DNA of 64,000 bases from positions 573,307 to 637,306 of the forward strand of contig CP179888.1 in NCBI GenBank assembly GCA_047456305.1, read 5' to 3'. This stretch comes from Candidatus Nealsonbacteria bacterium. Its GTDB lineage: Bacteria > Patescibacteriota > Minisyncoccia > Minisyncoccales > CAZKCU01. Each line of letters begins with the position of its first letter. Within the stretch, counting starts at the first letter, position 1. A model generated the notes under the pieces. That model was not told the origin of the DNA. It was given only the letters and a program-made list of their open reading frames with translations, and ran no database searches. Of the stretch, positions 3,839 to 43,636 are shown one piece after another. A program made the position numbers and the translations under genes.

Positions 3839-3872
3839 AAAGAGAGGGCTTTAAAAATTTAAGAAATTAAAA

Positions 3873-3915
3873 AACCTAAAATCGCCTTTTATAAGGCGAT
3901 TTTAGGTTTTCTTTT
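3873..3915 (+). terminator. Rho-independent terminator
   Basis: AACCTAAAATCGCC-ttttataa-GGCGATTTTAGGTT followed by T-rich tract. Confidence 0.8.
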
Positions 3916-3923
3916 AAGCTACC

Positions 3924-4105: not shown

Positions 4106-4144
4106 CTTTAAGTATTTAGAAAATAATACTTTTAATAAATTAGC

Positions 4145-4576
4145 ATGTTCATAGGAGAATATAGACATACCATTGATATTAAAAAAAGACTGGCTCTTCC
4201 TGCCAAATTCCGAAAGGAACTGGGCAAGACTATAATAATTACCCGCGGCTTGGATAATTGTTTAGTTGTTTATACTTTAAAAGAATGGAAGGTGATGTCT
4301 GATAAGTTAGGGAAGTTGCCAGCCAGTCAGCTTGAGGCTCGAGGTTTCGCTAGAATTATGTTGGCCGGAGCTATGGCAGTAGAACTCGATAGACTGGGCC
4401 GAATTCTTATTCCGGAGTATTTAAAAATTTATGCTAATTTAAAAAAGAATGTAGTAATTTGCGGTCTTTATAATCGATTGGAAATTTGGGATGGTCGAAA
4501 TTGGGAAATCTATAAGAAAAAGGTGGAAAAAGAAGTAGGTGATTTCGCAGCTAAATTGGGAGAGCTCGGAATCTAA
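4145..4576 (+). CDS. mraZ: Transcriptional regulator MraZ
   Basis: MFIGEYRHTIDIKKRLALPAKFR... and second half-repeat DRLGRILIP; first gene of the dcw order. Confidence 0.9.
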   Translation: MFIGEYRHTIDIKKRLALPAKFRKELGKTIIITRGLDNCLVVYTLKEWKVMSDKLGKLPASQLEARGFARIMLAGAMAVELDRLGRILIPEYLKIYANLKKNVVICGLYNRLEIWDGRNWEIYKKKVEKEVGDFAAKLGELGI

Positions 4577-4583
4577 TTTGAGA

Positions 4584-5603: not shown

Positions 5604-5608
5604 ATACA

Positions 5609-5956
5609 ATGAACAGTTATTCTTTAACTCAATCTATTTCACAAAGGTTAATAGTTTTACCAAAATTACCAAAAATTGGTTTAAAAGCTTTTTGGATTTT
5701 GAGTTTCATTTCAATAATATCGCTTTTAATATTTTATATTTTTCAGGTTAATGCGATGATTGGAGAGACTTATCTGATTCAAAATTATCAAAGAAAAATA
5801 AAGGAGTTGTCTCAAGAAAATAAAACCCTGGAGATTAATTTTTCTCAGGCAAATTCCTTATCTACTATTGAGACTTTAGTAAAAAATCTAAATTTTGAAA
5901 AAGTAGAACGAATTCATTATATTCAGGTTTTGGAAAGCCAGGTTGTTACAAAGTAG
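5609..5956 (+). CDS. FtsL/DivIC-like cell-division protein
   Basis: Single TM followed by a coiled-coil segment (QRKIKELSQENKTLE). Occupies the position between rsmH and ftsI. Confidence 0.5.
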   Translation: MNSYSLTQSISQRLIVLPKLPKIGLKAFWILSFISIISLLIFYIFQVNAMIGETYLIQNYQRKIKELSQENKTLEINFSQANSLSTIETLVKNLNFEKVERIHYIQVLESQVVTK

Positions 5957-5984
5957 ATAGAGAAACCTTAATCTCTTTTGTTTA

Positions 5985-21629: not shown

Positions 21630-21633
21630 TTAT

Positions 21634-21704
21634 TCCGGGGTCGTCTAATGGTAGGACAGTTGGTTTTGGTCCAACCAATCTTGGTTCGAATCCAAGCCCC
21701 GGAG
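21634..21704 (+). tRNA. tRNA-Gln (anticodon TTG)
   Basis: Manual cloverleaf: acceptor TCCGGGG/CCCCGGA (U1-A72), anticodon stem GTTGG/CCAAC with loop TTTTGGT, T-arm CTTGG-TTCGAAT-CCAAG. Confidence 0.8.
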
Positions 21705-21877
21705 CCCACATTTTCATTGTTGTTTCTATTCTCTCTTTAATTGGCTCGGTCGCTCGCTACGGCTCGCTCCCTCGCCCTTATTTTATATTCAAAAATGGGT
21801 TTAAAAAAGTCAAAAAAAATTCTACTAAGCAAAACCTTTCGGTTTCGCTTTTTTATTTTCGCCAAAATTAGACAAAA

Positions 21878-21906
21878 TTGACAAAGAGAAAATAAAAATA
21901 TAAGAT
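21878..21906 (+). promoter_or_regulatory. Sigma70-type promoter of the helicase/nuclease operon
   Basis: TTGACA, 17 nt, TAAGAT. ATG of the HTH gene lies 10 nt downstream. Confidence 0.5.
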
Positions 21907-21916
21907 AAAGAATAAT

Positions 21917-22096
21917 ATGGACAAACTTTTAACTATTAAAGAAATAGCAAAAATTCTCCGTGTCAGTGAACGGTCAGTAAACCGCTATATTGAATCTGGG
22001 AAGCTCAAAGCTTCCAAAATCGGCCAATGGCGAATATCCCAAAAAGATTTAGAAGGGTTTTTGCAAAAAACTAAAAATATTAAAAAGAGAAAGTGA
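21917..22096 (+). CDS. Excisionase/MerR-type helix-turn-helix DNA-binding protein (59 aa, below ORF-track cutoff)
   Basis: Own translation: MDKLLTIKEIAKILRVSERSVNRYIESGKLKASKIGQWRISQKDLEGFL... matches the excisionase-family HTH pattern. Confidence 0.6.
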   Translation: MDKLLTIKEIAKILRVSERSVNRYIESGKLKASKIGQWRISQKDLEGFLQKTKNIKKRK

Positions 22097-22100
22097 GATC

Positions 22101-25100
22101 ATGGATCAAGTTTCATTATTAAATTTCATAAAGTATTGTTTTGGGTATATAAAATTGACTCGACAACGTTCCTTTATGCTCCAAAGTAAGCTCGCAATTA
22201 AATTGCCCGAGCATTTTTTTAATCTTGCAGAACTACTAGAAAGTGATATAGATGACAATACCGGCAAGCTGATAAATTTGGAAACTTTTTATTCTCTTGA
22301 CCCGAAAAGGATAACAAAAGAGACCCAAAAACAATATAACGAAGAGCAGTCTGTAGCAAAAAAGATAGAAGAAATTTATAACAAAGGTAGGAACGATCCT
22401 TATACTAAGCAGATTGTCTTTAGTTTCGGGTATTACGAAATTGAAATTCCTTTGGAAGAAGAAGAAATTGAATTAAGATCAGATTATTTGAGAGAGGAAG
22501 ATGAGAGTGAAAAGCCAGCGACGAAGATTGACCGTTATCCTTTATTTTCTCTTCCAATTAGTATCGAAAAAGTATTTGAAAAGGGAGCCGGTAAATATTT
22601 CATTAAGCCAATCGATACCGGGGTTCAAGTAAATATTGGTGTTCTCGCAGATATTTTAGGTGAAGATCTTTACTATAAACTGATAGAAGAATTTGGCAGA
22701 TACGAGGTGAAGGGCGATTTATCTTTGCCAATAACAAACTCGGTAATTTTTAACGAAATATGGGACAAGATCAGAGCTCAATTGAAATTAACGGATGTTA
22801 AATTTGGTGAAGACTCTTTTGTCTTTAATGAAATACGAGTAGGTATTAGTCCAAGGGCAAATTATTTTATAGCAGATGATTTACAAAAACTTTCTAAATA
22901 CGAAGAAGATGATTTTAAAAATACATCACTAATCAGTTGGATCGAGAATGAAGACCTTTCCTCAAAAGATGAGATACCAGAAGAAGGAGAACTATATTTT
23001 CCGTTCCTTTACGATGAATATCAATTAAGGGTTCTCTCAAATATCAATAATAATGCAAGCATTGTTCAGGGTCCTCCCGGAACAGGAAAATCCCAAACTA
23101 TCGCAAATCTTCTTTGTCATCTTGCCGCAAAAGGGAAAAAGATTCTCTTTGTGAGCCAGAAAGAGCAAGCTTTAAAAGTGGTAAAAGATATGTTGAAAAA
23201 ATTAGACACCCGGTATTTATTTGGATATATGCCAGATGTTGGCTCCATCCAATTAAATGAAGAAGATAGGTTAGATGGAATTGCTCCCCAGCTAGCTGCC
23301 TTAGAGTCTCACATAGATGAATTAGGTTATAAAATTTATCCGAGAAGAAAATATCCTCTTATTGTATATAAAGAGAAAAAAGGAGACACAATAACAACTC
23401 AAAGTATTAAAAATATTACCGAAAAGAAGACAGAATTAAAACAATTGTTTAGTCAATCAATCGAAGCACAAAGATTATTCTATAAGCTTTACCAAGAATT
23501 AGAGGATTTAAAGGAATATGATTTTGAGATTTCTAATTTGAGACGGTTTCAAAAAACATTTTCTGATGAGTTGCAGAAAAAAATTATAGAACTAAAGGAT
23601 GCTATAGAAAAGTTAGTTAAAGAAATTAAAAACTATGGAAGAAATAAAAAGAAGACCGGGTTTGATAAACTATTTTCTATTCTTGATCTAAAAAATAATC
23701 ACTACTCAGAGCTTATCCGAGAAATTGTTAACGATATCACTCAAGCTGGTTACGATGGGCATAATAAACTTTTGCGTAGTTTAAAAAATACTTTACAAAG
23801 GTGGCGCTTAAAGAATATTCGTTCTGCTTTACCCAGAGAATTACTTGATTATATCGATGAGCAAATTGGACAAGATATTTCAAGAACTCAAGCCATTAAG
23901 ACAATGGAAGAATTATTGAATTATTGTCGTTACCACGAACAACAAAAAGAGTTAAAAGAAATGGAAAAGGATTTAGAAGATTCGTTAAATAGTTGTGGGT
24001 CATCTAATAAAGAATTTCTTCGGATAGAAAAACTTATATCTAAGGCTAACTTCAATGAAGTTAAAGAAAAAATTCTCAGAACCTCGGAAATCCATAGACA
24101 ATTAGATGAGATTGAAACTAAAAACCCAAATGATATTAGTTTGTCTCTTGAGAAGACAGAAAAAACTCGACAGCAACGTATAGCAAAATATCTTCAAAAC
24201 ATTATTAATAAAAAAATCTTAGATAAATATAAAGAAGGAGCTTCGGTGAGAGCGATAATTAGAAAACTTGCCAAGGCCTTTGGTAAATCTAAAAAAGCAT
24301 ACAAGACTTTTGATCGGCTTAGAGATGACCCTAACAATTTTCTGGCTATTATGGATTTCATTCCAGTTTGGATAATGGAACTTGACGATGCGAGTCGGGT
24401 TATTCCTCTAGGGCCCGGAATTTTCGATTATGTTATTTTTGACGAATCTTCTCAATGCAATATCGCCTATGGAATTCCAGCAATGTACCGGGCTAAAAAA
24501 GCTCTTTTCGTAGGAGATAGTGAACAGATGCGAGATAATACGATTATCTTTAAATCAAATCGCTCTTTCGATGAATTGGCTAAAAAATATCAAATTTCTG
24601 AAGATCTTCAAATCAAGGCTACTGGAGAGGCAGTGCAGTCAATTTTAGACATAGCTCGATTAACAGGTTTTGAAGAAGTGCCGTTAAGGAATCATTATCG
24701 TTCACCGAGAGAATTAATTGGTTTTAGTAATAAATACTTCTATAAACCAAAAGGCAAAGAATTGATAATCCAAAATACTAACTATTTATCGTATAAAAAC
24801 ACTGATCAGATAATGGTCATTCATCCGATTGAAGTTGATTGGAATAAAGAAATTTCAGAAAGGATAAATGTCTCCGAGGCGGAAAAAATATTAAAGTTTT
24901 TCCGTGAACTAAAATCTGATAAACGCTACCAAGACAAATCTATTGGAATTCTTTCGTTTTTTAACGCTCAAGCAGCTTATCTCCGTGAGCTATTTGAAAA
25001 AGAAGGATATAAAGAAGAAGTTGATAATTACAAAATCGGGATTATTGAAGGAATTCAGGGCGATGAAAAAGATATTATTATCTATTCCTTTGTTATTCGG

Positions 25101-25676
25101 ACTCCAGATCAAAAAAATAAATATATTCCTCTTACAGGTGAAGGTGGAGACATTAGAGCCGGCATAAACAAAGGCAGAGTAAATGTTGCTTTCTCCCGAG
25201 CGCGATTACAAACTCACTGTTTTGTAAGTATGCCTATTGAAGAAATCCCGGACGGAATTTGGATTAAGAAATATCTTGAGTATGTAAAGGATAATTGCAA
25301 AATTGATTTTTTCTCAGTAGAGTTAAAACCTTTTGATTCTGAATTTGAAAAGAAGTTTTATAATTTTGTCTATTCAAACTTACCTAAAAAAGGGTATCGC
25401 ATCCAGAACCAAGTTAGGAGTTGCGGATTTAAAATTGACTTTGTTATCACTAATACTAAGACTGGAGAGAAGGTTGCCATTGAGTGTGATGGCCCAACTC
25501 ATTTTCAAAATGAAGCTGATGAAGAAATTGGAATCTATGCTGAAGATGATGAAGAAAGACGACAAATATTAGAAGCTGCCGGCTGGGAGTTTTGTAGAAT
25601 AAAATACTCTGATTGGATTGATGAAAAATTCGATCGTAAACTAATATTAAATGACATTATAAAGATACTCTCATAG
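22101..25676 (+). CDS. Upf1-like SF1B helicase fused to C-terminal DUF559/Vsr-fold endonuclease (DUF4011-type architecture)
   Basis: GPPGTGKSQT, FDESSQC, VGDSEQM, HYRSPRELI, IQGDEKDIIIYSFV, NVAFSRAR. C-terminus FKIDFVI...VAIECDGPTHF...AGWEFCRIKYSDW. Confidence 0.8.
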   Translation: MDQVSLLNFIKYCFGYIKLTRQRSFMLQSKLAIKLPEHFFNLAELLESDIDDNTGKLINLETFYSLDPKRITKETQKQYNEEQSVAKKIEEIYNKGRNDPYTKQIVFSFGYYEIEIPLEEEEIELRSDYLREEDESEKPATKIDRYPLFSLPISIEKVFEKGAGKYFIKPIDTGVQVNIGVLADILGEDLYYKLIEEFGRYEVKGDLSLPITNSVIFNEIWDKIRAQLKLTDVKFGEDSFVFNEIRVGISPRANYFIADDLQKLSKYEEDDFKNTSLISWIENEDLSSKDEIPEEGELYFPFLYDEYQLRVLSNINNNASIVQGPPGTGKSQTIANLLCHLAAKGKKILFVSQKEQALKVVKDMLKKLDTRYLFGYMPDVGSIQLNEEDRLDGIAPQLAALESHIDELGYKIYPRRKYPLIVYKEKKGDTITTQSIKNITEKKTELKQLFSQSIEAQRLFYKLYQELEDLKEYDFEISNLRRFQKTFSDELQKKIIELKDAIEKLVKEIKNYGRNKKKTGFDKLFSILDLKNNHYSELIREIVNDITQAGYDGHNKLLRSLKNTLQRWRLKNIRSALPRELLDYIDEQIGQDISRTQAIKTMEELLNYCRYHEQQKELKEMEKDLEDSLNSCGSSNKEFLRIEKLISKANFNEVKEKILRTSEIHRQLDEIETKNPNDISLSLEKTEKTRQQRIAKYLQNIINKKILDKYKEGASVRAIIRKLAKAFGKSKKAYKTFDRLRDDPNNFLAIMDFIPVWIMELDDASRVIPLGPGIFDYVIFDESSQCNIAYGIPAMYRAKKALFVGDSEQMRDNTIIFKSNRSFDELAKKYQISEDLQIKATGEAVQSILDIARLTGFEEVPLRNHYRSPRELIGFSNKYFYKPKGKELIIQNTNYLSYKNTDQIMVIHPIEVDWNKEISERINVSEAEKILKFFRELKSDKRYQDKSIGILSFFNAQAAYLRELFEKEGYKEEVDNYKIGIIEGIQGDEKDIIIYSFVIRTPDQKNKYIPLTGEGGDIRAGINKGRVNVAFSRARLQTHCFVSMPIEEIPDGIWIKKYLEYVKDNCKIDFFSVELKPFDSEFEKKFYNFVYSNLPKKGYRIQNQVRSCGFKIDFVITNTKTGEKVAIECDGPTHFQNEADEEIGIYAEDDEERRQILEAAGWEFCRIKYSDWIDEKFDRKLILNDIIKILS

Positions 25677-25700
25677 AAAATTAAATGAAAAATTAATTAT

Positions 25701-27188
25701 ATGAAAAAAATTACAGCTACTAATTTTTACGATTATACTAAATGCAAATATTGTGTATATTTAGAAAAAAACGGAGACCCAAAATTAAAAGATAAGATCT
25801 CCAATTTTGTGAAATTATTATGGTATAGAGGTATCCAGCATGAAGAGGCGGTTATTAAAGATTTTATTAAAAGCAAAAATAAATCTTTTGCAGAGGTTGC
25901 AAGAGATAAGCCAGCTGGTAAAGCAACTTTTATAGAAACAATTAACCTTATGAAAAGAGGAGTTGACTATATATATCAAGGAGTATTGATGGCTGATAAC
26001 TTTGTGGGCAGACCTGATTTACTTGAAAAAATAAAAGGTAATTCATCTTTTGGAGAGTACTGTTATATACCTGTTGATATTAAATCAGGAAGGGGTTATG
26101 AAGGAGAGGATTTTGATAATGGGAAAGTTAAAGAATCATATTGGCTCCAAATTAATTTCTACAGTCTTTTATTGGGCAAGATTCAAGGGTACCTTCCTAA
26201 ATTCGGTAAAATTATCAATATAGATTATCAAGAATTAGAATATAAGATCGATTTAGACAACAAAAATTTTATTAAGATTAAAGAAGATATATCATTGATG
26301 GCAAAAGGCCGTGAGTTATATCAGCCGACAATTAGTAGCAAGTGCGATTTATGTAGATGGAAAACTTATTGTAAAAAATGGGCAAACAAAAGAAAGGATT
26401 TATCTTTATTGTTTTATGTTGGTGAGATTAAATATGGATTACAGGATTGTGGAATTAATAAAATTGAGGAAATACTTAAATTGCCGTTAGAAGAATGGCT
26501 TAAAAAACTACCGGAAATAAAAAAAGAAGGACACTTTAAGGGTATTGCAGAAAAAACTTTTACCAACCTTTATAGAAGAGCGGAGGTTTACAAACAAGGC
26601 AAAGAAGTCTTTTATTCTCGGATAGAGTTTCCTGATTCAGATATAGAAATACATTTTGACATAGAAGATGACCCGACACAGGATATTACTTATTTATTTG
26701 GTTTCTGGATAAGAGAATTTTCAAAAAACAAAAGCTATTATAAATACTTCATGGCACAAGATATTAATGAAGAAGAAAAAACCGTAAAGGAGTTGTGGAG
26801 ATTTTTGCAAGAATGCTACGGAATACCAATATACCATTATTCTATGCATGAAATATCTACATTAAGAAGATTACAGCAAAAATATAAATTGACTCCAAGC
26901 CCCTTGGAACAACTTGAAGAGAAATCTATCGACTTATACAAAATAATACAAAAGTATTCTGATTGGCCTTTGACTAGTTATGGTTTGAAACCAATTTGCA
27001 AATTTATAGGTTTTCAGTGGTCTTCTGATGATGCTGGTGGAGCGAATTCAATTGAATGGTTCTCTAAATTTCTTTCTGGCGATAAGGAAATGAGAGAGAA
27101 GATATTAGAATATAATAAAGAAGACTGCGAAGCGACAGCCCACTTAAAAGATTATATACAAAAAAATGATAAATTTATCTCCAAGTAA
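25701..27188 (+). CDS. TM0106-type RecB/Cas4-like Fe-S nuclease fused to RNase-H-like (DEDD) exonuclease
   Basis: CKYC, GRPDLL, PVDIKSG, QINFYSLLL, CDLCRWKTYC; then IHFDIEDDP and YNKEDCEAT. Confidence 0.75.
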   Translation: MKKITATNFYDYTKCKYCVYLEKNGDPKLKDKISNFVKLLWYRGIQHEEAVIKDFIKSKNKSFAEVARDKPAGKATFIETINLMKRGVDYIYQGVLMADNFVGRPDLLEKIKGNSSFGEYCYIPVDIKSGRGYEGEDFDNGKVKESYWLQINFYSLLLGKIQGYLPKFGKIINIDYQELEYKIDLDNKNFIKIKEDISLMAKGRELYQPTISSKCDLCRWKTYCKKWANKRKDLSLLFYVGEIKYGLQDCGINKIEEILKLPLEEWLKKLPEIKKEGHFKGIAEKTFTNLYRRAEVYKQGKEVFYSRIEFPDSDIEIHFDIEDDPTQDITYLFGFWIREFSKNKSYYKYFMAQDINEEEKTVKELWRFLQECYGIPIYHYSMHEISTLRRLQQKYKLTPSPLEQLEEKSIDLYKIIQKYSDWPLTSYGLKPICKFIGFQWSSDDAGGANSIEWFSKFLSGDKEMREKILEYNKEDCEATAHLKDYIQKNDKFISK

Positions 27189-27903
27189 AATCAATATCTA
27201 CAAGCAGTGTCCGTTTAAATATAAATGCGAGATAGATACCGAATTAAGAAAAAAATATAAGAGAGAAACTCCTCCGCTTGTTTTCGGTAATTTGGTACAT
27301 ACTTGTTTAAATGACCTGTATAAGAGAACTCAAAAAGAAGATAGAAGTTTACAGAGACTCAGAGATTTGTTTGAACAAAAATTTAAAGCCAATCTGGCAA
27401 AACATATCAATATTTTTGGTTCGCAAGAGAATATAATAAGTTATGTAGAAAAGGCAAAGAAGATGTTTAAAAATTATACAGAAAGCGAATTTTTTGAACC
27501 GGAGCCAATGCTTACAGAAGAATTCCCTAAGTCTTTAATAAATGAAAATATTGAACTTAGAGGAAAGTTTGATAGGGTCGATCTTAATAAGAATAAATTG
27601 ACCTTAATAGATTATAAGACAGGAAAATTTAAAGAGGATGAAGCAGATAAATTTCAAGTAAGCCTTTACGAGCTTCTTTTATCAAGATACTTACCCGAAT
27701 ATACCGTAGAGGAAAAGATACTATATTATCTTGATGATAATAAAACAATCAGATTTCCATCTGAGAAAGATAGTCTTTCTGAAATAGAGAAAAAATTAAT
27801 GTCTATTGCTAATAAAATAGATAATGACAAAGAACTACTTCCGACACAAAATAATCTATGCAGATATTGCGATTATAAAGTTATATGTCCTGTTTTTAAA
27901 TAA
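27166..27903 (+). CDS. Cas4/AddB-type PD-(D/E)xK nuclease with Fe-S cysteines
   Basis: QCPFKYKC, GKFDRVD, LIDYKTGK, QVSLYELLL, CRYCDYKVIC. Overlaps the upstream gene by 23 nt. Confidence 0.75.
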   Translation: MINLSPSKINIYKQCPFKYKCEIDTELRKKYKRETPPLVFGNLVHTCLNDLYKRTQKEDRSLQRLRDLFEQKFKANLAKHINIFGSQENIISYVEKAKKMFKNYTESEFFEPEPMLTEEFPKSLINENIELRGKFDRVDLNKNKLTLIDYKTGKFKEDEADKFQVSLYELLLSRYLPEYTVEEKILYYLDDNKTIRFPSEKDSLSEIEKKLMSIANKIDNDKELLPTQNNLCRYCDYKVICPVFK

Positions 27904-27918
27904 AAGAATTACAATTTG

Positions 27919-29322
27919 ATGACCCAGCGAGAAGCATTAGATATATTGAAGCTTGGCCACAATGTTTTTTTGACTGGCCCTGCCGGAAGCGGTAAGACTT
28001 TTTTGTTAAACAAGTATATAGAGTATTTAAAAGACAAAAAAGTTAAAGTTGGAATTACTGCTTCTACAGGAATTGCGGCTACCCATATTAACGGAAGAAC
28101 AATTCATTCTTGGTCCGGTTTTGGTATTAAAGACAAGTTGATAGAAAAAGAAATGAGAAAATTGTTAAATAGCAGGCATCTTAATTTAAGAATTTCAGCA
28201 ACAAAAGTTCTTATTATAGACGAGATTTCAATGCTTCATGCTCATCAATTAGATTTGGTAAATAGAATCTGCAAAAAAATTAGAAATAACTATTTGCCAT
28301 TTGGGGGATTACAGGTTGTATTGTGTGGAGATTTTTTCCAACTGTCTCCTGTAGAAAGAAGCGGTAAAAAACCTCACTTTGTTAATGAATCCAAGGCTTG
28401 GCTTGAAATGGGTATTAAGGTTTGTTATTTGGATAAATGTCAGCATAGGCACAAAGATGAGAATTTCATTAAGCTTTTAAACGAAATAAGAAAAAATAAT
28501 GTCAGTGTTTCAAGTAAAAAATTATTACTTGAAAGGTTATATAAATCAGTAAATACCCCTATTAAACCTGTGAAGCTTCATACTCATAATGCTAATGTAG
28601 ATGCTATTAATAGTTTTGAGTTAAAAAAGATAAAAACTAAAGAAAGGGTTTATGAAATGACTTCTGATGGTCCTAAGAATTTAGTCGATTCTTTGAAAAA
28701 ATGGTGTTTAGCTCCAGAAGGACTAACTGTGAAAAAAGGAGCTGCTGTAATATTTGTTAAGAATAATTTTGATAGAGGATATATAAATGGAACCCTTGGA
28801 AAGATTGTAGGATTTAATAAAGAAGATGGTTATCCGGTAGTAAAAGTTGTTTCTGGTAAAAGAATTCCAGCATATCCTGAATCATGGAAAATAGAGGAAG
28901 ATGATGAAGTTAAAGCCCAGATTAGTCAAATTCCACTCCGTTTGGCTTGGGCTATTACAGTTCATAAAAGTCAAGGTATGACTTTAGATATAGCGGAAAT
29001 GGATTTAAGTAAGTCATTTGATTATGGTATGGGTTATGTAGCTCTTTCTAGGGTAAGGTCTTTTAATGGAATAAAGTTAATAGGGGTAAATCGTTTAGCC
29101 CTTCAGGTTAGCAAGGAAGTCATAGAATTAGACAAATACCTGCAAAAAATGTCAGAGAAAGTAGAAAAGAGTTTAGGAGATATAAGTGTCAAAGAAATTA
29201 GGAAAAGGCAAAAGAGCTTTGTAGAATTGAATACAGATGAAGATGAGAGCGAAGAAGACGAAGCAATACCAACAGTAGATATTGCTGAAGATGAAATACC
29301 AATAGTAGATATTCCTTTTTAA
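27919..29322 (+). CDS. Pif1/RecD-type SF1B helicase with acidic C-terminal tail
   Basis: GPAGSGKTF, IIDEISML, LCGDFFQLSPV, ITVHKSQGMT, YVALSRVRS. Confidence 0.8.
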   Translation: MTQREALDILKLGHNVFLTGPAGSGKTFLLNKYIEYLKDKKVKVGITASTGIAATHINGRTIHSWSGFGIKDKLIEKEMRKLLNSRHLNLRISATKVLIIDEISMLHAHQLDLVNRICKKIRNNYLPFGGLQVVLCGDFFQLSPVERSGKKPHFVNESKAWLEMGIKVCYLDKCQHRHKDENFIKLLNEIRKNNVSVSSKKLLLERLYKSVNTPIKPVKLHTHNANVDAINSFELKKIKTKERVYEMTSDGPKNLVDSLKKWCLAPEGLTVKKGAAVIFVKNNFDRGYINGTLGKIVGFNKEDGYPVVKVVSGKRIPAYPESWKIEEDDEVKAQISQIPLRLAWAITVHKSQGMTLDIAEMDLSKSFDYGMGYVALSRVRSFNGIKLIGVNRLALQVSKEVIELDKYLQKMSEKVEKSLGDISVKEIRKRQKSFVELNTDEDESEEDEAIPTVDIAEDEIPIVDIPF

Positions 29323-29457
29323 TTTTTATTTGACTGGTGATTATCGGCAGTGCTTTTTTGCGATGGTAGGGTAGAGGAGAAGAAAAAGAAATAAATTTAT
29401 GAAGGCAAAAATATAATAATCATTTTGGCGTTGATAGTTATTATTTTATAATTACTT

Positions 29458-30225
29458 ATGAAAATATATTCTGATTTTGAACTTAGAACAGAAATAAAAA
29501 AACTCAAAAAAGAAAAAAAATACACAGAGGCTAAGAAGTTACTATTATCAAGAATAGATGAGAAATTTTTTAAAAAATCCGGTGCTTATAAGGATTATTG
29601 TTCGCAAACATTTACTACTTACTTTATCGAAGAACTTATAAAATTGTTAATTCAACTAGGCGAAAAAGAAAAGGCTCTCCATGTCTTTAAGAAAGGGCTA
29701 AAATTACCACATTTAAAAAGAGAAAATGAAATTGCCTTTTCTCTATCAATACAAAGTATCTATCCTCAAATAGCAAAACAGTATATTCCAAGATATAAAA
29801 TAAAAACAATCGAAAGAAGGGTAGTTTTCAAGAAAGGCAAACAAAAATTTTTAGAAAAAAATAGAAAGGAATTATTTGTTGAAGAGATAGCTTTGGAATA
29901 TTACCGTTATAATGGTAATTGGCGCGGTGTATGGCTCACTCCCACAACAGAAGTTTTATATTTTAAACGCTTAAGACAAACAATTGGTTTAAGTAATTAC
30001 AAAAAATTAACAAGCAATGCAATGGATAGCATGGGGCATATTTGCAATTTGTGCTATGGAGCACCAGATTTAATTTTGTATAAAGGGTTTATCAAGAAGA
30101 TTGGGAAGTCTGTTGAAGTAAAAGGCTTAAAAGACAAACTCTCTACAGCACAGTTAGTATGGATTGAACAATTTAATAAACTACATTTAGATTTTGAGGT
30201 GTTACAAGTTAAAGAAAAAAAATAA
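29458..30225 (+). CDS. FAN1-like nuclease (helical/TPR-like N-domain + VRR-NUC)
   Basis: VEEIALEYYRYNGNWRGVW and GAPDLILYK...SVEVKGLKDKLSTAQLVWIEQF (PD...ExK VRR-NUC pattern). Confidence 0.6.
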   Translation: MKIYSDFELRTEIKKLKKEKKYTEAKKLLLSRIDEKFFKKSGAYKDYCSQTFTTYFIEELIKLLIQLGEKEKALHVFKKGLKLPHLKRENEIAFSLSIQSIYPQIAKQYIPRYKIKTIERRVVFKKGKQKFLEKNRKELFVEEIALEYYRYNGNWRGVWLTPTTEVLYFKRLRQTIGLSNYKKLTSNAMDSMGHICNLCYGAPDLILYKGFIKKIGKSVEVKGLKDKLSTAQLVWIEQFNKLHLDFEVLQVKEKK

Positions 30226-30436
30226 TATTTTTGTGAGAGGTTAACTCTAACTCGAAAAAATTAAAGAAATTAGAATTTGGAGAGTGAATAAAATTTTTAA
30301 ATAAAAATGTGAATTTTTTAGTAGAAAATCTTTTAAAAGTTAGGGCAACTGACCATCGAAAAATTCAAGAGGAAATTAGAAGAATTATTAAAAGAAGCCA
30401 AACAAAAAGTCGAGGAATTAATTGAGAAATAAAATT

Positions 30437-30751: not shown

Positions 30752-30770
30752 AAAATTTAGCCCGAAATTA
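30752..30770 (+). repeat. Junction repeat family 1 (AAAATTTAGGCYGAARTTGAG), short copy
   Basis: AAAATTTAGCCCGAAATTA immediately before ATG 30773. Confidence 0.6.
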
Positions 30771-30772
30771 AT

Positions 30773-31477
30773 ATGAAACAATGGGATAAAATATTTAAAA
30801 AATATGGTAAAGTTTTTACAAAAATCGAAAGGGATTTGCCAAAAATTGTAAAAATATTTAAAAAACATAATGTTAAAAAAGTCCTTGATTTAGGTTCAGG
30901 CACGGGACGACATGTAATTTATTTAGCTAAAAATGGATTTGAAGTATATGGAATTGATATTTCCGAGGAAGGAATAAAAATTACCAAAAATTGGTTAAGA
31001 GAGAACGAATTAAAGGCGGGCCTTAAAGTTGGCTCCATCTACAAAAAGTTGCAATACAAAGATAACTTTTTTGATGCGGTTATATCTACAAGCACGATTC
31101 ATCATGCCAGAATTAAAACCATCAGAAAAGCAATCAAAGAAATAGAAAGGATATTAAAGCCAGGCGGATTAATTTTTATAACTGTCCGTAAAAGAAAGCT
31201 TAAGAAGTTCTGGCCAAAATCTACAATAATTGAGAAATACGGAAAACAAAAATCAAGCTATAAAGTAATTGGACCAAGGACTTATATACCGATAGAAGGA
31301 GGCGAAAAAGGATTAATACATTATCTTTTTAATAAAGAATTGATAAAAAAAGAATTTAAGAACTTTAAAATTAATAATATTTGGATTGATTCTAAAAGAA
31401 GGCATTATTGTTTCTTAGGGGAATTAAAAAACTTACCAAAATTTAGGCCGAAGTTGAGGGAAATCAATAAAATATGA
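30773..31477 (+). CDS. Class I SAM-dependent methyltransferase
   Basis: [11 protein letters not shown] motif I, GIDIS acidic loop, [10 protein letters not shown]. Confidence 0.75.
31438..31465 (+). repeat. Junction repeat family 1, copy inside 3' end of methyltransferase ORF
   Basis: AAAATTTAGGCCGAAGTTGAGGGAAATC, 9 nt before ATG 31474. Confidence 0.7.
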
Positions 31478-32016
31478 AATATCCTGATTTGAAGATAAAA
31501 TTTCAAAATAAAACATTAACTTTTCAATTTTTGGGGCAATTTGAGATCGAGCGAGACGAAAAAGGAACCCCAATTACTTATGAGAGGAAAAATCAAGAAG
31601 AAACGAGTTATTTATTAAGTGTTCGGACAGAACTAACAAAAAGTGGTAAACCTGAGGTAATTACAATTCTTCCAAATCATTTACGTACAAAATTAAAACG
31701 AAAATATTACGATACAAAAAATCTTGGTGATATCTGGCGATTACCCGGAATTTATGCATTTATATTGACAAAAGATAATAACGTAAAATACAAATATATA
31801 GGTCGAGCAAGTATCAGAATTGCAAACCGTTTACGACAATACCTTGCACCGAGCTCTAAAAGAATGACGACTTTTTATGTAAATCGATTGTTGTTTAAAA
31901 CACTTAAAGAGGGAGACACAGTGCTAATCTATTTTTATCCCGAGCCTGACACAGAAAAGGAATTGCAAATTCTTCTTCGTCCAGATTGGAACCGTGAGAT
32001 TCCTAGAAATAATTAA
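31474..32016 (+). CDS. GIY-YIG-like nuclease-domain protein (tentative)
   Basis: [22 protein letters not shown]...ANRLRQY resembles GIY-(x13)-YIG plus a conserved Arg. ATGA overlap with the upstream gene. Confidence 0.4.
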
Positions 32017-32042
32017 AATTTAGGCCAAAGTTGAGAGAAATT
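32015..32042 (+). repeat. Junction repeat family 1, intergenic copy
   Basis: AAAATTTAGGCCAAAGTTGAGAGAAATT, 10 nt before ATG 32053. Confidence 0.7.
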
Positions 32043-32052
32043 CAAAAAGAAT

Positions 32053-32628
32053 ATGAATGATATTGAAATCGAGATTCAAGTTAATATTGAAGATAATAAG
32101 CCGCTAATAGATTTTTTAGAAAAGAGCGGTCAGTTTATGTCAGAGAACCATCAGATAGACGAGTATTTTTCTCCGGTTCACCGAAATTTTATTGGAGTTC
32201 GTCCAGTTAAAGAATGGTTAAGGTTACGAAACTCAGACGGGAAATTCTCTATAAATTATAAAAACTGGTATTTTGATGAAAAAGGAAAAAGCCACCATTG
32301 TGATGAATACGAAACTAAAATAGAAGATTTAACCCAAATTAAAAAGATATTAGATGTCCTTAATTTTAAATCTATTATTAAGGTTGATAAACTAAGAAAA
32401 ACCTGGATATACAAAGATTATGAAATTGATGTAGATTCAGTAAAAGGGCTGAGAGATTTTGTGGAGATTGAATACATCGGAAAAGAAGAAAAAATAGACC
32501 CAAAAAAGATTACAGAAGAAATGATGAGCTTTCTTAAAAGTCTTGGGTGCGGAAAAATAAAAAGGAATTATGTAGGTTATCCGTTTCAATTACTATTTCC
32601 AGATGAAGTAAAATATGAAGAGCAATAA
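32053..32628 (+). CDS. CYTH-domain protein (CyaB-like class IV adenylyl cyclase / triphosphatase fold)
   Basis: N-terminal IEIEIQ (ExExK-like), WLRLR, DEYETKI, LRKTW, DFVEIEY in CyaB-like order. Confidence 0.7.
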   Translation: MNDIEIEIQVNIEDNKPLIDFLEKSGQFMSENHQIDEYFSPVHRNFIGVRPVKEWLRLRNSDGKFSINYKNWYFDEKGKSHHCDEYETKIEDLTQIKKILDVLNFKSIIKVDKLRKTWIYKDYEIDVDSVKGLRDFVEIEYIGKEEKIDPKKITEEMMSFLKSLGCGKIKRNYVGYPFQLLFPDEVKYEEQ

Positions 32629-32629
32629 A

Positions 32630-32658
32630 TCGCCAAGATGGCGGTTTTTTGATAGAAT
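32630..32658 (+). promoter_or_regulatory. Junction element family 2: hairpin + T-run + TGnTAGAAT (-10) cassette
   Basis: TCGCCAAGATGGCGGTTTTTTGATAGAAT; ATG 32666 lies 7 nt after the -10. Confidence 0.6.
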
Positions 32659-32665
32659 AAATAAA

Positions 32666-32956
32666 ATGAAATATAGTAAAAAACCAATTGATAATAATTT
32701 AGAGAAATATTACAAAAAATGGATTTCAGCAATTGCTAATGACGAAACCGGCCGAACAATCAAACGGCATATCATTAGACATGCCAAAGAAATTTATTCA
32801 AAAGAATCAAAAGTATGGTCGGCGAGCATGAGAAATTTGATAGAAGTTTTTGATGAGGTCTATAAATCGACTCCGTCAATAAAATTAAAAATAAAAAGAC
32901 TCCAACATAAGTACAAACTGAATCCAAAAAGATATACCCCTCCACCGTCCAAGTAA
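32666..32956 (+). CDS. Hypothetical basic protein
   Basis: ORF-track frame trimmed to the ATG that follows the junction element (MKYSKKPID...). Confidence 0.4.
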   Translation: MKYSKKPIDNNLEKYYKKWISAIANDETGRTIKRHIIRHAKEIYSKESKVWSASMRNLIEVFDEVYKSTPSIKLKIKRLQHKYKLNPKRYTPPPSK

Positions 32957-32973
32957 GGTTTAAATTTTCGTAA

Positions 32974-33002
32974 TCGCCAAGATAGCGGTTTTTTGGTAGA
33001 AT
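32974..33002 (+). promoter_or_regulatory. Junction element family 2
   Basis: TCGCCAAGATAGCGGTTTTTTGGTAGAAT; ATG 33010 lies 7 nt after the -10. Confidence 0.6.
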
Positions 33003-33009
33003 AGAAAAT

Positions 33010-33552
33010 ATGAAGAAAGAGGAATATTTAGATATAGTTGACGAAAATGACAAGGTAATTGATAGAGATACTAGAAAAAATATATATAGAAAAAGAATAG
33101 ATTCCCAAGTTAGAGTTGTAAATGTTTTTATTTTAAACTCGGAAGGAAAATTACTCCTACCTAAAAGGTCGATGAATAGACAGATTTTTCCTGGATGCTA
33201 TGATTTTTCTTGTGGAGAACATGTTTTATCTGGAGAAAAGTATTATGAAACAGCCTTGAGAGGCGTGAGAGAAGAATTGGGCCTTGAAGGAGTAGAATTA
33301 ATTGAGTTAGGGAAACTTACTCCTCGGGATGGTGTTAGTTGTTTTATGAAAATCTATAAAGTGATCTATGATGCAGAAATAAATAATTATGACACGGATG
33401 GAATTGATAGATTGTTTTGGTATAGCTTGGATAAAGTGAGAAAAATGATCATGGAGGACAAGAAAAAATTTAAGGATGATTTTTCAATTGTACTAGAAAA
33501 ATTTGCTAATCAACTTGAAAACATAAGTAGCAAAAAACAGAATTTAGGCTGA
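33010..33552 (+). CDS. Nudix hydrolase (IDI/YfcD-like)
   Basis: Nudix box GEHVLSGEKYYETALRGVREELGL, with RG in place of the canonical RE. Confidence 0.8.
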   Translation: MKKEEYLDIVDENDKVIDRDTRKNIYRKRIDSQVRVVNVFILNSEGKLLLPKRSMNRQIFPGCYDFSCGEHVLSGEKYYETALRGVREELGLEGVELIELGKLTPRDGVSCFMKIYKVIYDAEINNYDTDGIDRLFWYSLDKVRKMIMEDKKKFKDDFSIVLEKFANQLENISSKKQNLG

Positions 33553-33559
33553 AATTGAG
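33541..33559 (+). repeat. Junction repeat family 1, copy at 3' end of Nudix ORF
   Basis: AATTTAGGCTGAAATTGAG. Confidence 0.6.
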
Positions 33560-35163: not shown

Positions 35164-35297
35164 TAAAACTCACAAAATCGATAGCTCAAAATACTTTTTA
35201 GACAACTGCCAGTAGGTTCTAATAGTGTTCAATCCTTGCAGTTAATGAATTTCAAAAAAAGTTGCCGAGAAGAAATTTTTTTGGTAAGATAGAATAT

Positions 35298-36011
35298 ATG
35301 AAATTAGTCAATAAAACAGCTTTAATAACTGGTGGCTCAAAAGGAATTGGAAGGGCTATTGCTCAAATGTTTATTAAAGAAGGAGCAAAAGTTATAGTTT
35401 TTGACATTGAAAAACCAGATTACGAAGTGGAATTTTATCAAGTTGATACAGGCAAAGAAGAACAAATAGGAAAGGCGTTTGGTCAGATTAAACAATTAGA
35501 TATCCTTGTAAATAATGCTGGAGTATATTTTCAGGCATCTGTAGAAGAAACCTCAAAAGAGCAATTGGATAAAATTGTGGATATAAATTTAAAAGGAACA
35601 TATCTAATGTCAAAATACGCAATTCCCATAATCAGGAAAACCAAGGGCAATATTATCAATATTTCATCAGGATTAGGGGTTGTTCCTGAGCCAGAATCTC
35701 CTGCCTATTGTTCAACAAAAGCAGCGATAATAATGCTTACAAAATGTATGGCTCAAGAATACGCGTCAGAGGGATTAAGGATAAATGCGATATTACCAGG
35801 ACCAATAGATACTCCATTATTAAGAAATGCTTTTTCTTCAGAAAAGGAAATTGAAGAATATGCAAAATTAAATCCTATGAAGAGGATTGGGAGACCGGAA
35901 GATGTTGCAAGTATAGCAGTTTTTTTAGCTTCAGATGAAGCAAGCTACGTCACTGGTGGACTATATTCAGTCGATGGTGGAGAGTCTACTTCCAGTGTTT
36001 ATTCAAAATAA
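35298..36011 (+). CDS. Short-chain dehydrogenase/reductase (FabG-like)
   Basis: TGGSKGIGRAIA, NNAG, YCSTKAA. ATG 35298 follows a TGGTAAGAT box. Confidence 0.85.
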   Translation: MKLVNKTALITGGSKGIGRAIAQMFIKEGAKVIVFDIEKPDYEVEFYQVDTGKEEQIGKAFGQIKQLDILVNNAGVYFQASVEETSKEQLDKIVDINLKGTYLMSKYAIPIIRKTKGNIINISSGLGVVPEPESPAYCSTKAAIIMLTKCMAQEYASEGLRINAILPGPIDTPLLRNAFSSEKEIEEYAKLNPMKRIGRPEDVASIAVFLASDEASYVTGGLYSVDGGESTSSVYSK

Positions 36012-36027
36012 GTCGCCGTAAGGAAAA

Positions 36028-36056
36028 TCGCCAATCAGGCGTTTTTTTGGTAGAAT
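36028..36056 (+). promoter_or_regulatory. Junction element family 2
   Basis: TCGCCAATCAGGCGTTTTTTTGGTAGAAT; ATG 36063 lies 6 nt after the -10. Confidence 0.6.
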
Positions 36057-36062
36057 AGGAAT

Positions 36063-36704
36063 ATGAATAATAATTTTAACTCAGAAAATTTAGGTAAAAT
36101 TTTTGATTTTTTACATAAAGTAGGAAAGTTAAAATTAACTTTCAGATTTAGTGAGGTAAAAAACATGCCTAAAGATTTAAAAGACTCAAGTGCTGCGCAT
36201 TCGTGGAGATTGGTCTTAATGGTATTTATAATAGCTGATGAATTAAATTTGGATATAAATATAGAGCACGCCTTAGAGATTGCTATTATTCACGATATTG
36301 TAGAAGCAATTACAGGAGATATAGACCAAGTTTTAATTTTTGATGGTAAGGTATCAAAAGAAGAAAAACAAAGAAATGAAAAAGAAGCGATGAAAAAACT
36401 TAAAGAAAGCCTACCTTTAAAACTCGGAAATAAAGTATCTAATTTATGGAATGAATATGAGGGAAGCTCTACAAAAGAAGCGAAATTTGTAAAAGCGCTT
36501 GATAAATTAGAAACATTAACTCATTTAATTGAAACTGGTTATAAAACCTATGATAGACCAGAATTTATAGTCAAATATGCCGATAAAACAGTTAAAAATT
36601 TCCCCGAATTAACGGGTGTGTTAAAAATAATCAAAAAGAAGCTAAAAGCAGAATTTGATAAGGGCAATATTCCATGGAAAGAAGAATATGATTGTTTAGA
36701 TTAA
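36063..36704 (+). CDS. HD-domain phosphohydrolase (YfbR-like 5'-nucleotidase type)
   Basis: AAHSWRL...AIIHDIVEAITGDI (H...HD...D). Confidence 0.75.
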   Translation: MNNNFNSENLGKIFDFLHKVGKLKLTFRFSEVKNMPKDLKDSSAAHSWRLVLMVFIIADELNLDINIEHALEIAIIHDIVEAITGDIDQVLIFDGKVSKEEKQRNEKEAMKKLKESLPLKLGNKVSNLWNEYEGSSTKEAKFVKALDKLETLTHLIETGYKTYDRPEFIVKYADKTVKNFPELTGVLKIIKKKLKAEFDKGNIPWKEEYDCLD

Positions 36705-36718
36705 TAAACTGCCAAAAA

Positions 36719-36747
36719 TCGCCAAAAAGGCGGTTTTTTGATAGAAT
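36719..36747 (+). promoter_or_regulatory. Junction element family 2
   Basis: TCGCCAAAAAGGCGGTTTTTTGATAGAAT; ATG 36754 lies 6 nt after the -10. Confidence 0.6.
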
Positions 36748-36753
36748 AGAATA

Positions 36754-42161: not shown

Positions 42162-42191
42162 GACACCCCTTAAGGTCCCCAAATTTGTTCC

Positions 42192-42237
42192 TAAAATCCA
42201 GGTTCGAGACCAGGGATGCCAGCACCAGTCAGCGCAG
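42192..42237 (+). repeat. Direct repeat with tRNA T-arm-like core (left copy)
   Basis: TAAAATCCAGGTTCGAGACCAGGGATGCCAGCACC...AGCGCAG, about 85-90% identical to 42796-42841. Confidence 0.75.
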
Positions 42238-42711: not shown

Positions 42712-42795
42712 TTAAAATTTTATCTCATTTTAGCTTAAAAATGCCCCGACCGAGGCGGGTCGATGGAATACTGCCAAAAGCCCCGAAATCCCTCT

Positions 42796-42841
42796 TAAAA
42801 TCCAGGTTCGAGACCGGGGATGCCAGCAACCCTGAGCGCAG
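42796..42841 (+). repeat. Direct repeat with tRNA T-arm-like core (right copy)
   Basis: TAAAATCCAGGTTCGAGACCGGGGATGCCAGCAACC...AGCGCAG. Confidence 0.75.
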
Positions 42842-43434: not shown

Positions 43435-43460
43435 GAATTGCTGAATTGCTGTTACCGGAA

Positions 43461-43489
43461 TCGCCAAGATGGCGGTTTTTTGATAGAAT
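43461..43489 (+). promoter_or_regulatory. Junction element family 2
   Basis: TCGCCAAGATGGCGGTTTTTTGATAGAAT, identical to the 32630 copy. ATG 43496 lies 6 nt after the -10. Confidence 0.6.
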
Positions 43490-43495
43490 GAAATA

Positions 43496-43636
43496 ATGAA
43501 AGAAGAAATTATGAAAAAAAAGCCGCCGAGAAAAATTAAAAATATAAAATCAACGAAAAAGTCAAAATCTATTTGTCGGTTTTGGAATTTGGCAGCTCGG
43601 TTGGAACACAGAAGAATTAAGAGTAAGAAAAGATAA
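43496..43636 (+). CDS. Possible 46-aa highly basic peptide
   Basis: Own translation MKEEIMKKKPPRKIKNIKSTKKSKSICRFWNLAARLEHRRIKSKKR. Supported only by its position after the junction promoter. Confidence 0.25.
   Translation: MKEEIMKKKPPRKIKNIKSTKKSKSICRFWNLAARLEHRRIKSKKR

Follow-up and report, generated by a model that had tools for sequence, protein, structure and literature searches.

A probable mosaic of helicase and nuclease cassettes beside a tRNA-Gln gene in a Nealsonbacteria genome

Does a tightly packed row of helicase and nuclease genes encode one DNA-targeting system, or several units that share an address? The question is raised by a 64-kb stretch of DNA (the window) whose proteins are 100% identical to those of a 639,534 bp contig of Candidatus Nealsonbacteria (Patescibacteria, or Candidate Phyla Radiation; CP179888.1). 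Directly 3′ of a tRNA-Gln(UUG) gene lie six open reading frames (ORFs), encoding in order a 59-aa helix-turn-helix (HTH) protein, a 1191-aa helicase-nuclease, a 495-aa TM0106-family nuclease, a 245-aa Cas4-like nuclease, a 468-aa Pif1-family helicase and a 255-aa VRR-NUC protein. The original prediction made on this DNA took the six genes to be one undescribed DNA-targeting system and named a single end-processing machine as the alternative. On the evidence below, the cluster is probably a lineage-specific mosaic of DNA-processing cassettes, each moving or inherited independently, in a variable stretch that follows dnaX and tRNA-Gln.

The six genes in related loci

Homologues of each gene were traced into more than 30 related loci, and all window proteins were compared by tblastn with loci centred on the helicase-nuclease, TM0106, Cas4-like, Pif1 and VRR-NUC genes. 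The six genes occurred together in none of the 30+ loci, and the neighbouring genes in the relatives had no homologue anywhere in the window. What recurs are smaller units: a small HTH gene with the helicase-nuclease, the helicase-nuclease with TM0106, and TM0106 with the Cas4-like gene (Table 1). Of seven informative loci, four have a small HTH gene, from one of two unrelated families, directly 5′ of the helicase-nuclease. TM0106 comes next after the helicase-nuclease in three of seven other loci (L041, L042 and L046, two independent lineages), and the Cas4-like gene after TM0106 in three of about ten informative loci (L042, L048/49 and L050, three independent lineages). TM0106 stands alone in seven further loci. 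None of the other cluster genes accompanies the Cas4-like gene in its four closest genome matches (55–62% identity); in one locus (L005) its start lies within the 3′ end of a gene for type I HsdR, downstream of HsdS and DUF3800 genes, and in another (L004) it lies near a ResIII enzyme and an AAA_21 ATPase. Pif1 adjoined other cluster genes in 0/5 other Pif1 loci, and VRR-NUC did so in 0/3. A 260-aa ORF 3′ of TM0106 in L046 was considered as a diverged Cas4-like protein and rejected on comparison.

Nucleotide alignments locate the joints between the units. Blocks of DNA shared with relatives at 88–91% identity end at or within ~45 nt of gene boundaries, and by these breakpoints the cluster is a mosaic in which four or more pieces have been reshuffled independently. 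The first block (cassette A) matches L039/L040 by blastn across 3.88 kb, where its flanks are unrelated to the window, with an LPG synthase gene 5′ and a Metallophos and an SMC-like ATPase gene 3′. The block shared with L042, the closest relative, ends ~45 nt inside the Pif1 ORF, 3 nt from the start of the block shared with L060; in the latter locus homology is limited to Pif1 (88% identical as protein), which follows a HerA-type ATPase gene. The fourth block, in L065, is confined to the VRR-NUC cassette and is preceded by an SMC/SbcC-like gene. The claim of one six-gene system is thus not supported: the set never recurs, and its cassettes are found separately at 88–91% DNA identity. The single end-processing machine fares no better, since Pif1 and VRR-NUC never adjoin the other genes and the sub-modules alone recur.

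On gene order, the tRNA-Gln is the conserved anchor directly 5′ of the variable region. The genes on its 5′ side encode a P-type ATPase, Na/Ca exchanger, RmuC, RecR, DnaB, M23 peptidase, CysS, GtrA and a short DnaX; XseA is encoded farther 3′, and the surroundings are ordinary chromosomal genes. Synteny from the P-type ATPase to DnaX and tRNA-Gln is retained in L041 and partial in L037. The order dnaX, tRNA-Gln, helicase is found in both of these relatives, and in L001 a tRNA-Gln(CUG) precedes the helicase in a different context. Three loci on one dnaX–tRNA-Gln anchor (the window, L037 and L041) carry different cargo. Slot swapping is also seen between L045 and L046, which have TM0106 (68%) and a flank gene (66%) in common: between these two genes L046 carries the helicase-nuclease, and L045 an N6_Mtase–Methylase_S fusion with a protein matching PADLOC PDC-S11 from end to end (486 bits). 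This swap and the differing cargo at a shared anchor are the pattern of a defence hotspot. Defence-type neighbours in the relatives include type I restriction-modification (R-M), ResIII with AAA_21, PDC-S11, HerA, SbcCD-like, Fic, PhdYeFM and MNT-HEPN genes. A defence-island-like nature of the locus is plausible, and the tRNA-adjacent, variable, island-like character given to it in the original prediction agrees with its conserved flank and differing cargo. Profile searches (Pfam, NCBIfam) found no integrase among the window ORFs, and the tRNA 3′ end (25 nt, up to 3 mismatches) occurs once in the window, leaving no att-type repeat; cassettes are therefore probably exchanged by homologous recombination through the conserved flanks.

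Two further observations concern the anchor. Shortly after tRNA-Gln lies a CGCT-repetitive, G+C-rich stretch, GGCTCGGTCGCTCGCTACGGCTCGCTCCCTCGCC, in an otherwise A+T-rich spacer; it is missing from the matching spacers in L037, L041 and L001. Between cysS and dnaX, the L037/L038 contig carries three tandem Zn_Ribbon_TF + TFIIB genes (archaeal/eukaryotic-type TFB; 3588–6781) that are absent from the window, on a contig that otherwise looks patescibacterial and is syntenic with the window.

Table 1 Features of the window, DNA blocks shared with relatives, and arrangement of the related loci.
Feature or locus	Position	Strand	Support or identity	Content or arrangement
tRNA-Gln(UUG), anticodon ttg	21633–21708	+	ARAGORN; Rfam 59.9 bits	
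Cassette A	21839–25710	+	DNA homology to relocated copy	Promoter, HTH gene, helicase-nuclease gene
Candidate sigma-70-type promoter	21878–21906	+	Top-scoring site of scan	TTGACA-17-TAAGAT
59-aa HTH_17/excisionase-type DNA-binding protein	21917–22096	+	HTH_17 4e-17 (Pfam); TIGR01764 39.8 bits	
1191-aa helicase-nuclease	22101–25676	+	AAA_11 4e-12, AAA_12 3e-21, MTES_1575 5e-18, DUF559 1.6e-3 (Pfam)	
495-aa TM0106-family protein	25701–27188	+	TIGR03491 292.3 bits (cut-off 97.45); RNase_H_2 2.5e-30; PDDEXK_1/Cas4	
245-aa stand-alone Cas4/AddB-type PD-(D/E)XK Fe–S nuclease	27166–27903	+	PDDEXK_1 2e-36; Cas_Cas4 2e-8	
468-aa Pif1-family SF1B helicase	27916–29322	+	PIF1 4.5e-40, 138 bits (cut-off 25.9); Pif1_2B_dom 26.4 bits (cut-off 23.9)	
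Cassette D	29440–30272	+	VRR_NUC 6e-11, 42.8 bits (cut-off 23.8)	255-aa VRR-NUC protein, ORF 29458–30225
Block shared with L039/40	21839–25710		88%	Promoter, HTH, helicase
Block shared with L042	24459–27958		90%	Helicase 3′ part, TM0106, Cas4-like
Block shared with L060	27961–29322		91%	Pif1
Block shared with L065	29440–30272		91%	VRR-NUC
L041			Helicase 77%	5′ side fully syntenic; tRNA-Gln, helicase, TM0106 at contig end
L037/38			Helicase 81%	dnaX, tRNA-Gln, HTH_3 gene, helicase, three unknown ORFs
L039/40			Helicase 89%	HTH_17, helicase, Metallophos + SMC-like ATPase; unrelated genes 5′
L001			Helicase 76%	ftsX, tRNA-Gln(CUG), HTH_31, helicase, aspartate decarboxylase and others
L002/3			Helicase 56%	Between DUF1016 nuclease and Fic/PhdYeFM genes
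L042 (closest relative)			TM0106 97%, Cas4-like 93%	Helicase, TM0106, Cas4-like, unrelated 341-aa ORF in place of Pif1
L046			Helicase 55%, TM0106 62%	Helicase then TM0106; no Cas4-like gene
L048/49 and L050			TM0106 ~58%, Cas4-like ~52%	MgsA/RarA, TM0106, Cas4-like
CGCT-repetitive stretch	21743–21778			
Terminator-like hairpin and T-run	~21829–21859		Read by eye	Ahead of promoter
Acidic Pif1 tail, ~30 aa	29230–29322			
Methyltransferase (Methyltransf_11)	30773–31477			
Methyltransferase/GIY-YIG-like pair	30773–32016			
Motif, four copies	30752–30769, 31438–31455, 32015–32032, 33539–33556			
~49-nt cassette, six copies	32625–32673, 32969–33017, 35257–35305, 36023–36071, 36714–36762, 43456–43504			Between + strand genes
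61-nt direct repeat	42177–42237 and 42781–42841		82% identical	

Proteins of the cluster and their predicted activities

The six ORFs are arranged exactly as originally described, all on the + strand. Gaps of 4 nt (HTH to helicase-nuclease) and 24 nt (to TM0106) are followed by a 23-nt overlap of the TM0106 and Cas4-like ORFs, and then by gaps of 12 nt (to Pif1) and 135 nt (to VRR-NUC). Profile searches bore out the domain assignments, namely an excisionase-type HTH, a superfamily 1B (SF1B) helicase with a DUF559/Vsr-fold nuclease, an iron–sulfur (Fe–S) nuclease with an RNase-H-like domain, a second Cas4/AddB nuclease, Pif1 and VRR-NUC; the catalytic and Fe–S motifs look intact when the translations are read by eye. 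The promoter that had been proposed ahead of the HTH gene is present, and its TTGACA −35 box is kept in the relocated cassette copy in L039; promoter-like sites as a class are no more frequent than chance (52 observed against 49.4 expected in shuffles). A hairpin with a T-run precedes the promoter. Farther 3′, a ~49-nt intergenic cassette made up of the hairpin CGCCAAGATGGCG, a T-run and a TAGAAT −10-like box, a combined terminator/promoter unit, occurs six times between + strand genes, with no copy within 21.9–32.6 kb.

The 59-aa HTH protein is 82% identical in L039/L040. An unrelated HTH_3 or HTH_31 gene occupies the same position in L037 and L001, and no HTH gene is found there in L041, L002 and L046. 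Such use of two unrelated families fits what would be expected of a swappable repressor, and the protein is probably a regulator of the helicase-nuclease gene that follows it.

The 1191-aa protein consists of a family-specific N-domain (residues 1–310), an Upf1/Sen1-like SF1B helicase containing a long helical insert (~436–727), and a C-terminal MTES_1575/DUF559 (Vsr-fold) endonuclease. No Pfam model matched residues 1–310 up to E 0.1, including DUF4011, which had been considered in the original prediction. The N-domain is confined to 62 cluster representatives and is N-terminal in every full-length match (~1150–1450 aa). Motifs read from the translation are GPPGTGKS (K330), DE at 781–782 and D1113/E1128/D1130; the K330 region, D781/E782, D1113, E1128 and D1130 are invariant in an alignment of 30 homologues. 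An AlphaFold2 model (predicted local distance difference test score 72) had its best fold matches in senataxin, Aquarius, Upf1, IGHMBP2 and Dna2, confirming the Upf1-like SF1B assignment; the search with the full-length model recovered the helicase core alone and did not classify the N-terminal domain. More than 1000 homologues of ~1190 aa, 53–57% identical, are found in Moranii-, Buchanan- and Gottesman-bacteria and Paceibacterota. An exact look-up of the 1191-aa sequence gave no match, as the public annotation starts 25 codons later; the alignment indicates that the longer start is the conserved one. Identity to plasmid DUF4011/DUF3320 proteins is 27–31%, and viral contigs scanned with the helicase-nuclease and the TM0106 protein singly held no close relatives of either.

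The 495-aa protein combines an N-terminal Cas4/RecB-like Fe–S nuclease with a C-terminal RNase_H_2 (DEDD-type) exonuclease and has no helicase domain. Its residues 5–486 align to positions 2–462 of the 462 in TIGR03491, making it a full-length member of the TM0106 family, for which a literature search found no published function. Motifs read by eye are D126-x-K128, C15 or C18 with C215/C218/C224, and D320/E322. The 245-aa protein shows D149-x-K151 and C15 with C232/C235/C241, so that the C...CxxCx5C cysteines are present in both Cas4-like domains. It scores 35–58 bits against Cas4 models, under the equivalog cut-off of 65, and 105 bits against the PHROG 69 exonuclease. By its profile matches, it is a generic Cas4/AddB-type nuclease and not CRISPR-linked. 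Searches of PDB sequences with the two proteins gave no match.

TM0106-family proteins are also encoded by 67 plasmids. In five of six that were inspected (from Sphingobium, Rhizobium, Roseovarius, Piscirickettsia and Legionella), TM0106 forms the N-terminal half of a ~1100-aa protein with a C-terminal AAA_11/AAA_12 SF1 helicase. Residues 5–486 of the 495-aa protein align with the N-terminal 484 residues of such a fusion (E 2e-39), whose helicase half, at ~700–1080, has Walker A and B motifs and resembles the 1191-aa protein at motif level only (E 7e-6). A divergent WYL regulator gene lies upstream of four fusions (L068, L070, L071 and L073), on conjugative proteobacterial plasmids, and the surroundings hold SbcCD-like genes, HEPN, DUF3883, dGTPase, a ubiquitin-like conjugation set and methyltransferases. 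PADLOC v2 recognised no system in these WYL and TM0106-helicase loci and reported MkoA/MkoC-like helicase matches only. The fusion is an argument for joint action of TM0106 nucleases and an SF1 helicase, and for an association of the family with defence; it lends indirect support to a partnership of helicase and TM0106.

Pif1 has a wide distribution, with more than 8000 homologues at ~60% identity throughout Patescibacteria. Its translation contains a GSGKT Walker A motif, a Walker B motif and the Pif1 signature region (by eye). Homologues at 64% and 61% identity occupy housekeeping contexts, between ClpP-side genes and RNase Y and between UPF0182 and a cold-shock gene, respectively. Two viral contigs encode Pif1 relatives (41–51% identity), with none of the other cluster genes alongside. 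The window protein has an acidic tail, ...EDEAIPTVDIAEDEIPIVDIPF, whose last four residues are DIPF, the C-terminal tip of SSB (the bacterial protein that binds single-stranded DNA), known as the SSB-Ct motif (PMC10143822). An -IPF ending is found in 12 of the 120 best Pif1 homologues, some of them distant and with otherwise unrelated tails, and most homologues lack the tail. It may mimic an SSB tail on a helicase; a literature search for an SSB-like tail on a Pif1-type helicase found no paper.

The VRR-NUC protein pairs a helical N-terminal part with a C-terminal VRR-NUC nuclease, in which D204 and E220-x-K222 are present (by eye). It had been called FAN1-like: the VRR_NUC domain holds up, and likeness to FAN1, the closest solved structures, is limited to the last 50 residues (E 7e-4). 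In FAN1, SAP and TPR domains lie N-terminal to VRR-NUC; residues 1–196 of the 255-aa protein gave only faint TPR hints (E 0.017–0.09). About 10 homologues were found among 5.8 billion proteins; other contexts of the gene include a transposase with a NucS-like gene and an MNT-HEPN toxin-antitoxin pair.

Some features lie 3′ of the cluster. A generic S-adenosylmethionine-dependent methyltransferase gene with a partial mad2-like match (87 bits) begins 550 nt after it. It shares 4 nt with a 180-aa ORF whose GIY-YIG match falls short of the threshold (20.7 bits, cut-off 22.6), and next in line are genes for a CYTH/class IV adenylate cyclase-like protein and a Nudix hydrolase. The motif AAAATTTAGSCCRAARTT occurs four times against 0.38 expected, with three copies 4–21 nt 5′ of the start codons of the methyltransferase, GIY-YIG-like and CYTH genes and the fourth 54 nt 5′ of the start of a 187-aa ORF at 33610. 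Farther on, a 61-nt direct repeat contains the tRNA T-arm-like GGTTCGAGACC, in a region of short ORFs without family matches where ARAGORN and Rfam called no RNA. The Rfam scan of the whole window found two tRNAs and nothing else.

Proposed roles and rival explanations

As part of a mosaic, cassette A would most likely act like the single-protein antiphage helicase-nucleases of the Hhe type. Its SF1B motor would load on and translocate along foreign or aberrant DNA, its C-terminal Vsr-fold nuclease would cut, and the HTH protein would repress the helicase-nuclease gene. TM0106 would be translationally coupled to the Cas4-like nuclease, and the pair would most likely degrade DNA ends on both strands, a Fe–S RecB-type 5′ nuclease and a DEDD 3′ exonuclease doing the trimming. 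Pif1 is probably a general 5′–3′ helicase of these organisms, and the VRR-NUC protein may be a sporadic structure-specific nuclease. Cooperation between the helicase-nuclease and TM0106 is possible, the two then being the plasmid TM0106-helicase fusion in split form.

That last suggestion can be extended to a functional three-part module in which TM0106 and the Cas4-like protein join the helicase-nuclease (with or without the HTH protein). Such a module would be the ~1100-aa fusion divided over separate proteins, its SF1B motor passing DNA on to three or four nuclease sites in the service of defence or mobile-DNA control, with Pif1 and VRR-NUC as bystanders. The helicase-nuclease directly precedes TM0106 in the window and in three other loci, L041, L042 and L046, the last of them distant (55% and 62% identity), TM0106 precedes the Cas4-like gene in L042, L048/49 and L050, five plasmids fuse TM0106 to an AAA_11/AAA_12 helicase, and the 24-nt gap and 23-nt overlap here are tight. 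Set against this, the helicase-nuclease occurs without TM0106 in L001, L002, L037 and L039; all three genes come together in the window and the close relative L042 only; and the helicase slot of L045/L046 swaps with an R-M-like pair while TM0106 stays. Because the fused helicase resembles the 1191-aa protein at motif level only (E 7e-6) and SF1 helicase genes are missing from the neighbourhood of most stand-alone TM0106 genes in Patescibacteria, we rate the three-part module as possible and not established, and on balance consider it unlikely. The same doubtful standing applies to the more specific proposal that these three genes form a Patescibacteria-specific split helicase/multi-nuclease defence module, related by fission or fusion to the WYL-controlled plasmid proteins. 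If true, the split module and the plasmid fusions would both belong to a widespread class of immune systems that degrade DNA and have yet to be described.

The remaining explanations are less probable still. A lineage-specific housekeeping machine for resecting double-strand-break ends, AddAB/AdnAB-like and composed of TM0106, the Cas4-like protein and Pif1 (perhaps with VRR-NUC), is improbable. It would suit the weak AddB/AddA nuclease-domain matches of the Cas4-like protein, the more than 8000 patescibacterial Pif1 matches, the position of TM0106 and the Cas4-like gene in L048 and L050, where they follow MgsA/RarA, a gene associated with replication, and the presence of dnaX, dnaB, recR, rmuC and xseA in the window. 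It is at odds with a Pif1 that adjoins neither nuclease in 5 other Pif1 loci or 12 TM0106/Cas4-like loci and is replaced in the nearest relative by an unrelated 341-aa ORF, with the R-M/defence contexts of close Cas4-like homologues and with the lack of synteny of the locus in relatives; the ~10 homologues of VRR-NUC are incompatible with a core repair role. Very improbable, in our estimate, is a remnant of a phage or plasmid replication-recombination module integrated at the tRNA gene: no integrase, structural or packaging genes and no att-like tRNA 3′ repeat accompany the cluster, the helicase-nuclease and TM0106 have no close viral relatives, the viral contigs with Pif1 relatives (41–51%) lack the other genes, G+C is not anomalous and the cassettes have independent histories. 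These outweigh the tRNA-adjacent site, the two viral contigs themselves and the PHROG matches (excisionase, 47 bits; exonuclease phrog_69, 105 bits; Dda-like helicase phrog_325, 232 bits). For the six genes as a single antiphage or DNA-targeting system the probability is minimal; genes packed closely on one strand, one good promoter match, motifs that look intact and the lack of a match to any complete named system speak for it, and they stand against a set that is never together in 30+ loci and whose cassettes each occur alone elsewhere at 88–91% DNA identity.

Several points weigh against a mosaic of independent cassettes. The scan found no + strand terminator-like site between genes from 21.9 to 32.6 kb, so the six genes are probably co-transcribed, and read-through from the 21878 promoter across the cluster is plausible; tightly packed and probably jointly expressed, they could have been recruited to work together in this lineage. 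TM0106 proteins do work with an SF1 helicase in the fusions, and two such helicases flank TM0106 here. Composition gives no per-gene signal of foreign DNA in the cluster (G+C and G+C at third codon positions): G+C is ~0.33 across the window and 0.29–0.34 in the six genes. The locus sample is modest (~30, many of them short contigs) and was gathered by methods that favour close relatives, and co-occurrence was judged by adjacency within loci. For none of the cluster genes has a role in defence been demonstrated in Patescibacteria.

Patescibacteria have yielded very few recognised defence systems (PMC12366544), and the locus offers candidates. One is a family of compact helicase-nucleases that resemble Hhe, have an N-domain of their own and are ~55% identical across many patescibacterial lineages. 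Another is the uncharacterised TM0106 family, whose plasmid helicase fusions, beside WYL regulators and known defence genes, suggest an immune role. Cassette-level shuffling beside a tRNA gene in genomes of ~0.6 Mb bears on the flexible gene pool of ultra-small symbionts, and the locus illustrates that helicases and nucleases do not make up a system just by being encoded in a striking co-linear set.

Comparison with known systems

As originally stated, the cluster matches no named system: PADLOC and NCBIfam matches are partial and far under their cut-offs, and the window contains no cas1/cas2, CRISPR array or integrase. CRISPR Cas4 was rejected at 53.6 bits for the 245-aa protein and 29.3 bits for TM0106 (TIGR00372, cut-off 65), with no cas genes or arrays. 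MADS was rejected: the HTH protein reaches 31 bits where the MAD1 cut-off is 80, the mad2 and mad8 matches cover partial domains, and the other components are absent. Mokosh, Nhi and Druantia DruK gave partial domain matches only (Pfam, NCBIfam, PADLOC).

AddAB, AdnAB and RecBCD likewise combine SF1 motors with RecB/Cas4-type Fe–S nucleases; they differ in that the cluster has no UvrD-like (SF1A) subunits and adjacency of its helicase and nuclease genes is not conserved. AddA/AddB models score 24–31 bits with the 245-aa protein, over the nuclease domain only, against cut-offs of 486–904. The Pif1 protein shares the full core of bacterial Pif1 (Bacteroides, Thermus and others) and phage Dda and differs in its acidic DIPF tail. 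The plasmid TM0106 proteins have the same Fe–S nuclease and RNase_H_2 arrangement within ~1100 aa that include an SF1 helicase, usually with WYL upstream, whereas the 495-aa protein lacks the helicase half and is followed by a separate second Cas4-like nuclease.

The 1191-aa protein is most like Hhe (Gao_Hhe/HheA), which also places an AAA_11/AAA_12 SF1 helicase before a DUF559/MTES_1575 Vsr-fold nuclease in one polypeptide. Matches to Hhe, ProA and PDC-S37 span the C-terminal half of the helicase and the nuclease, and the 1191-aa protein is a stand-alone gene in variable, defence-rich neighbourhoods. Against Hhe it scores 147.6 bits (NF042953, cut-off 2000; residues 749–1176 on positions 1256–1669 of 1797) and 110 bits (PADLOC Hhe); against ProA, 245 bits (NF058533, cut-off 1500; positions 1000–1692 of 1903); and against PADLOC PDC-S37, 238 bits over positions 623–1328 of 1550. 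At 7–16% of the Hhe and ProA cut-offs, it falls outside both families. It is shorter than the three profiles (~1550–1900 positions), has its own conserved N-domain in place of DUF4011 and, unlike Hhe, is largely limited to Patescibacteria. Literature searches on PDC-S37 and ProA found no relevant papers.

At the level of the locus, the closest parallel is the core defence hotspot cDHS1 of P. aeruginosa, which has a large DUF4011 helicase gene at its border (PMC10250203). The present locus differs from hotspots of this type in that one flank is defined, few genomes were compared and some cargo (Pif1) looks like housekeeping. Its cargo matches validated defence systems partially; in the relatives there are candidate families (PDC-S11, PDC-S37-like) and R-M or toxin-antitoxin neighbours. 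The locus resembles such hotspots in its conserved core flank, here dnaX and tRNA-Gln, followed without an integrase by differing cargo rich in nucleases, helicases, R-M and toxin-antitoxin genes.

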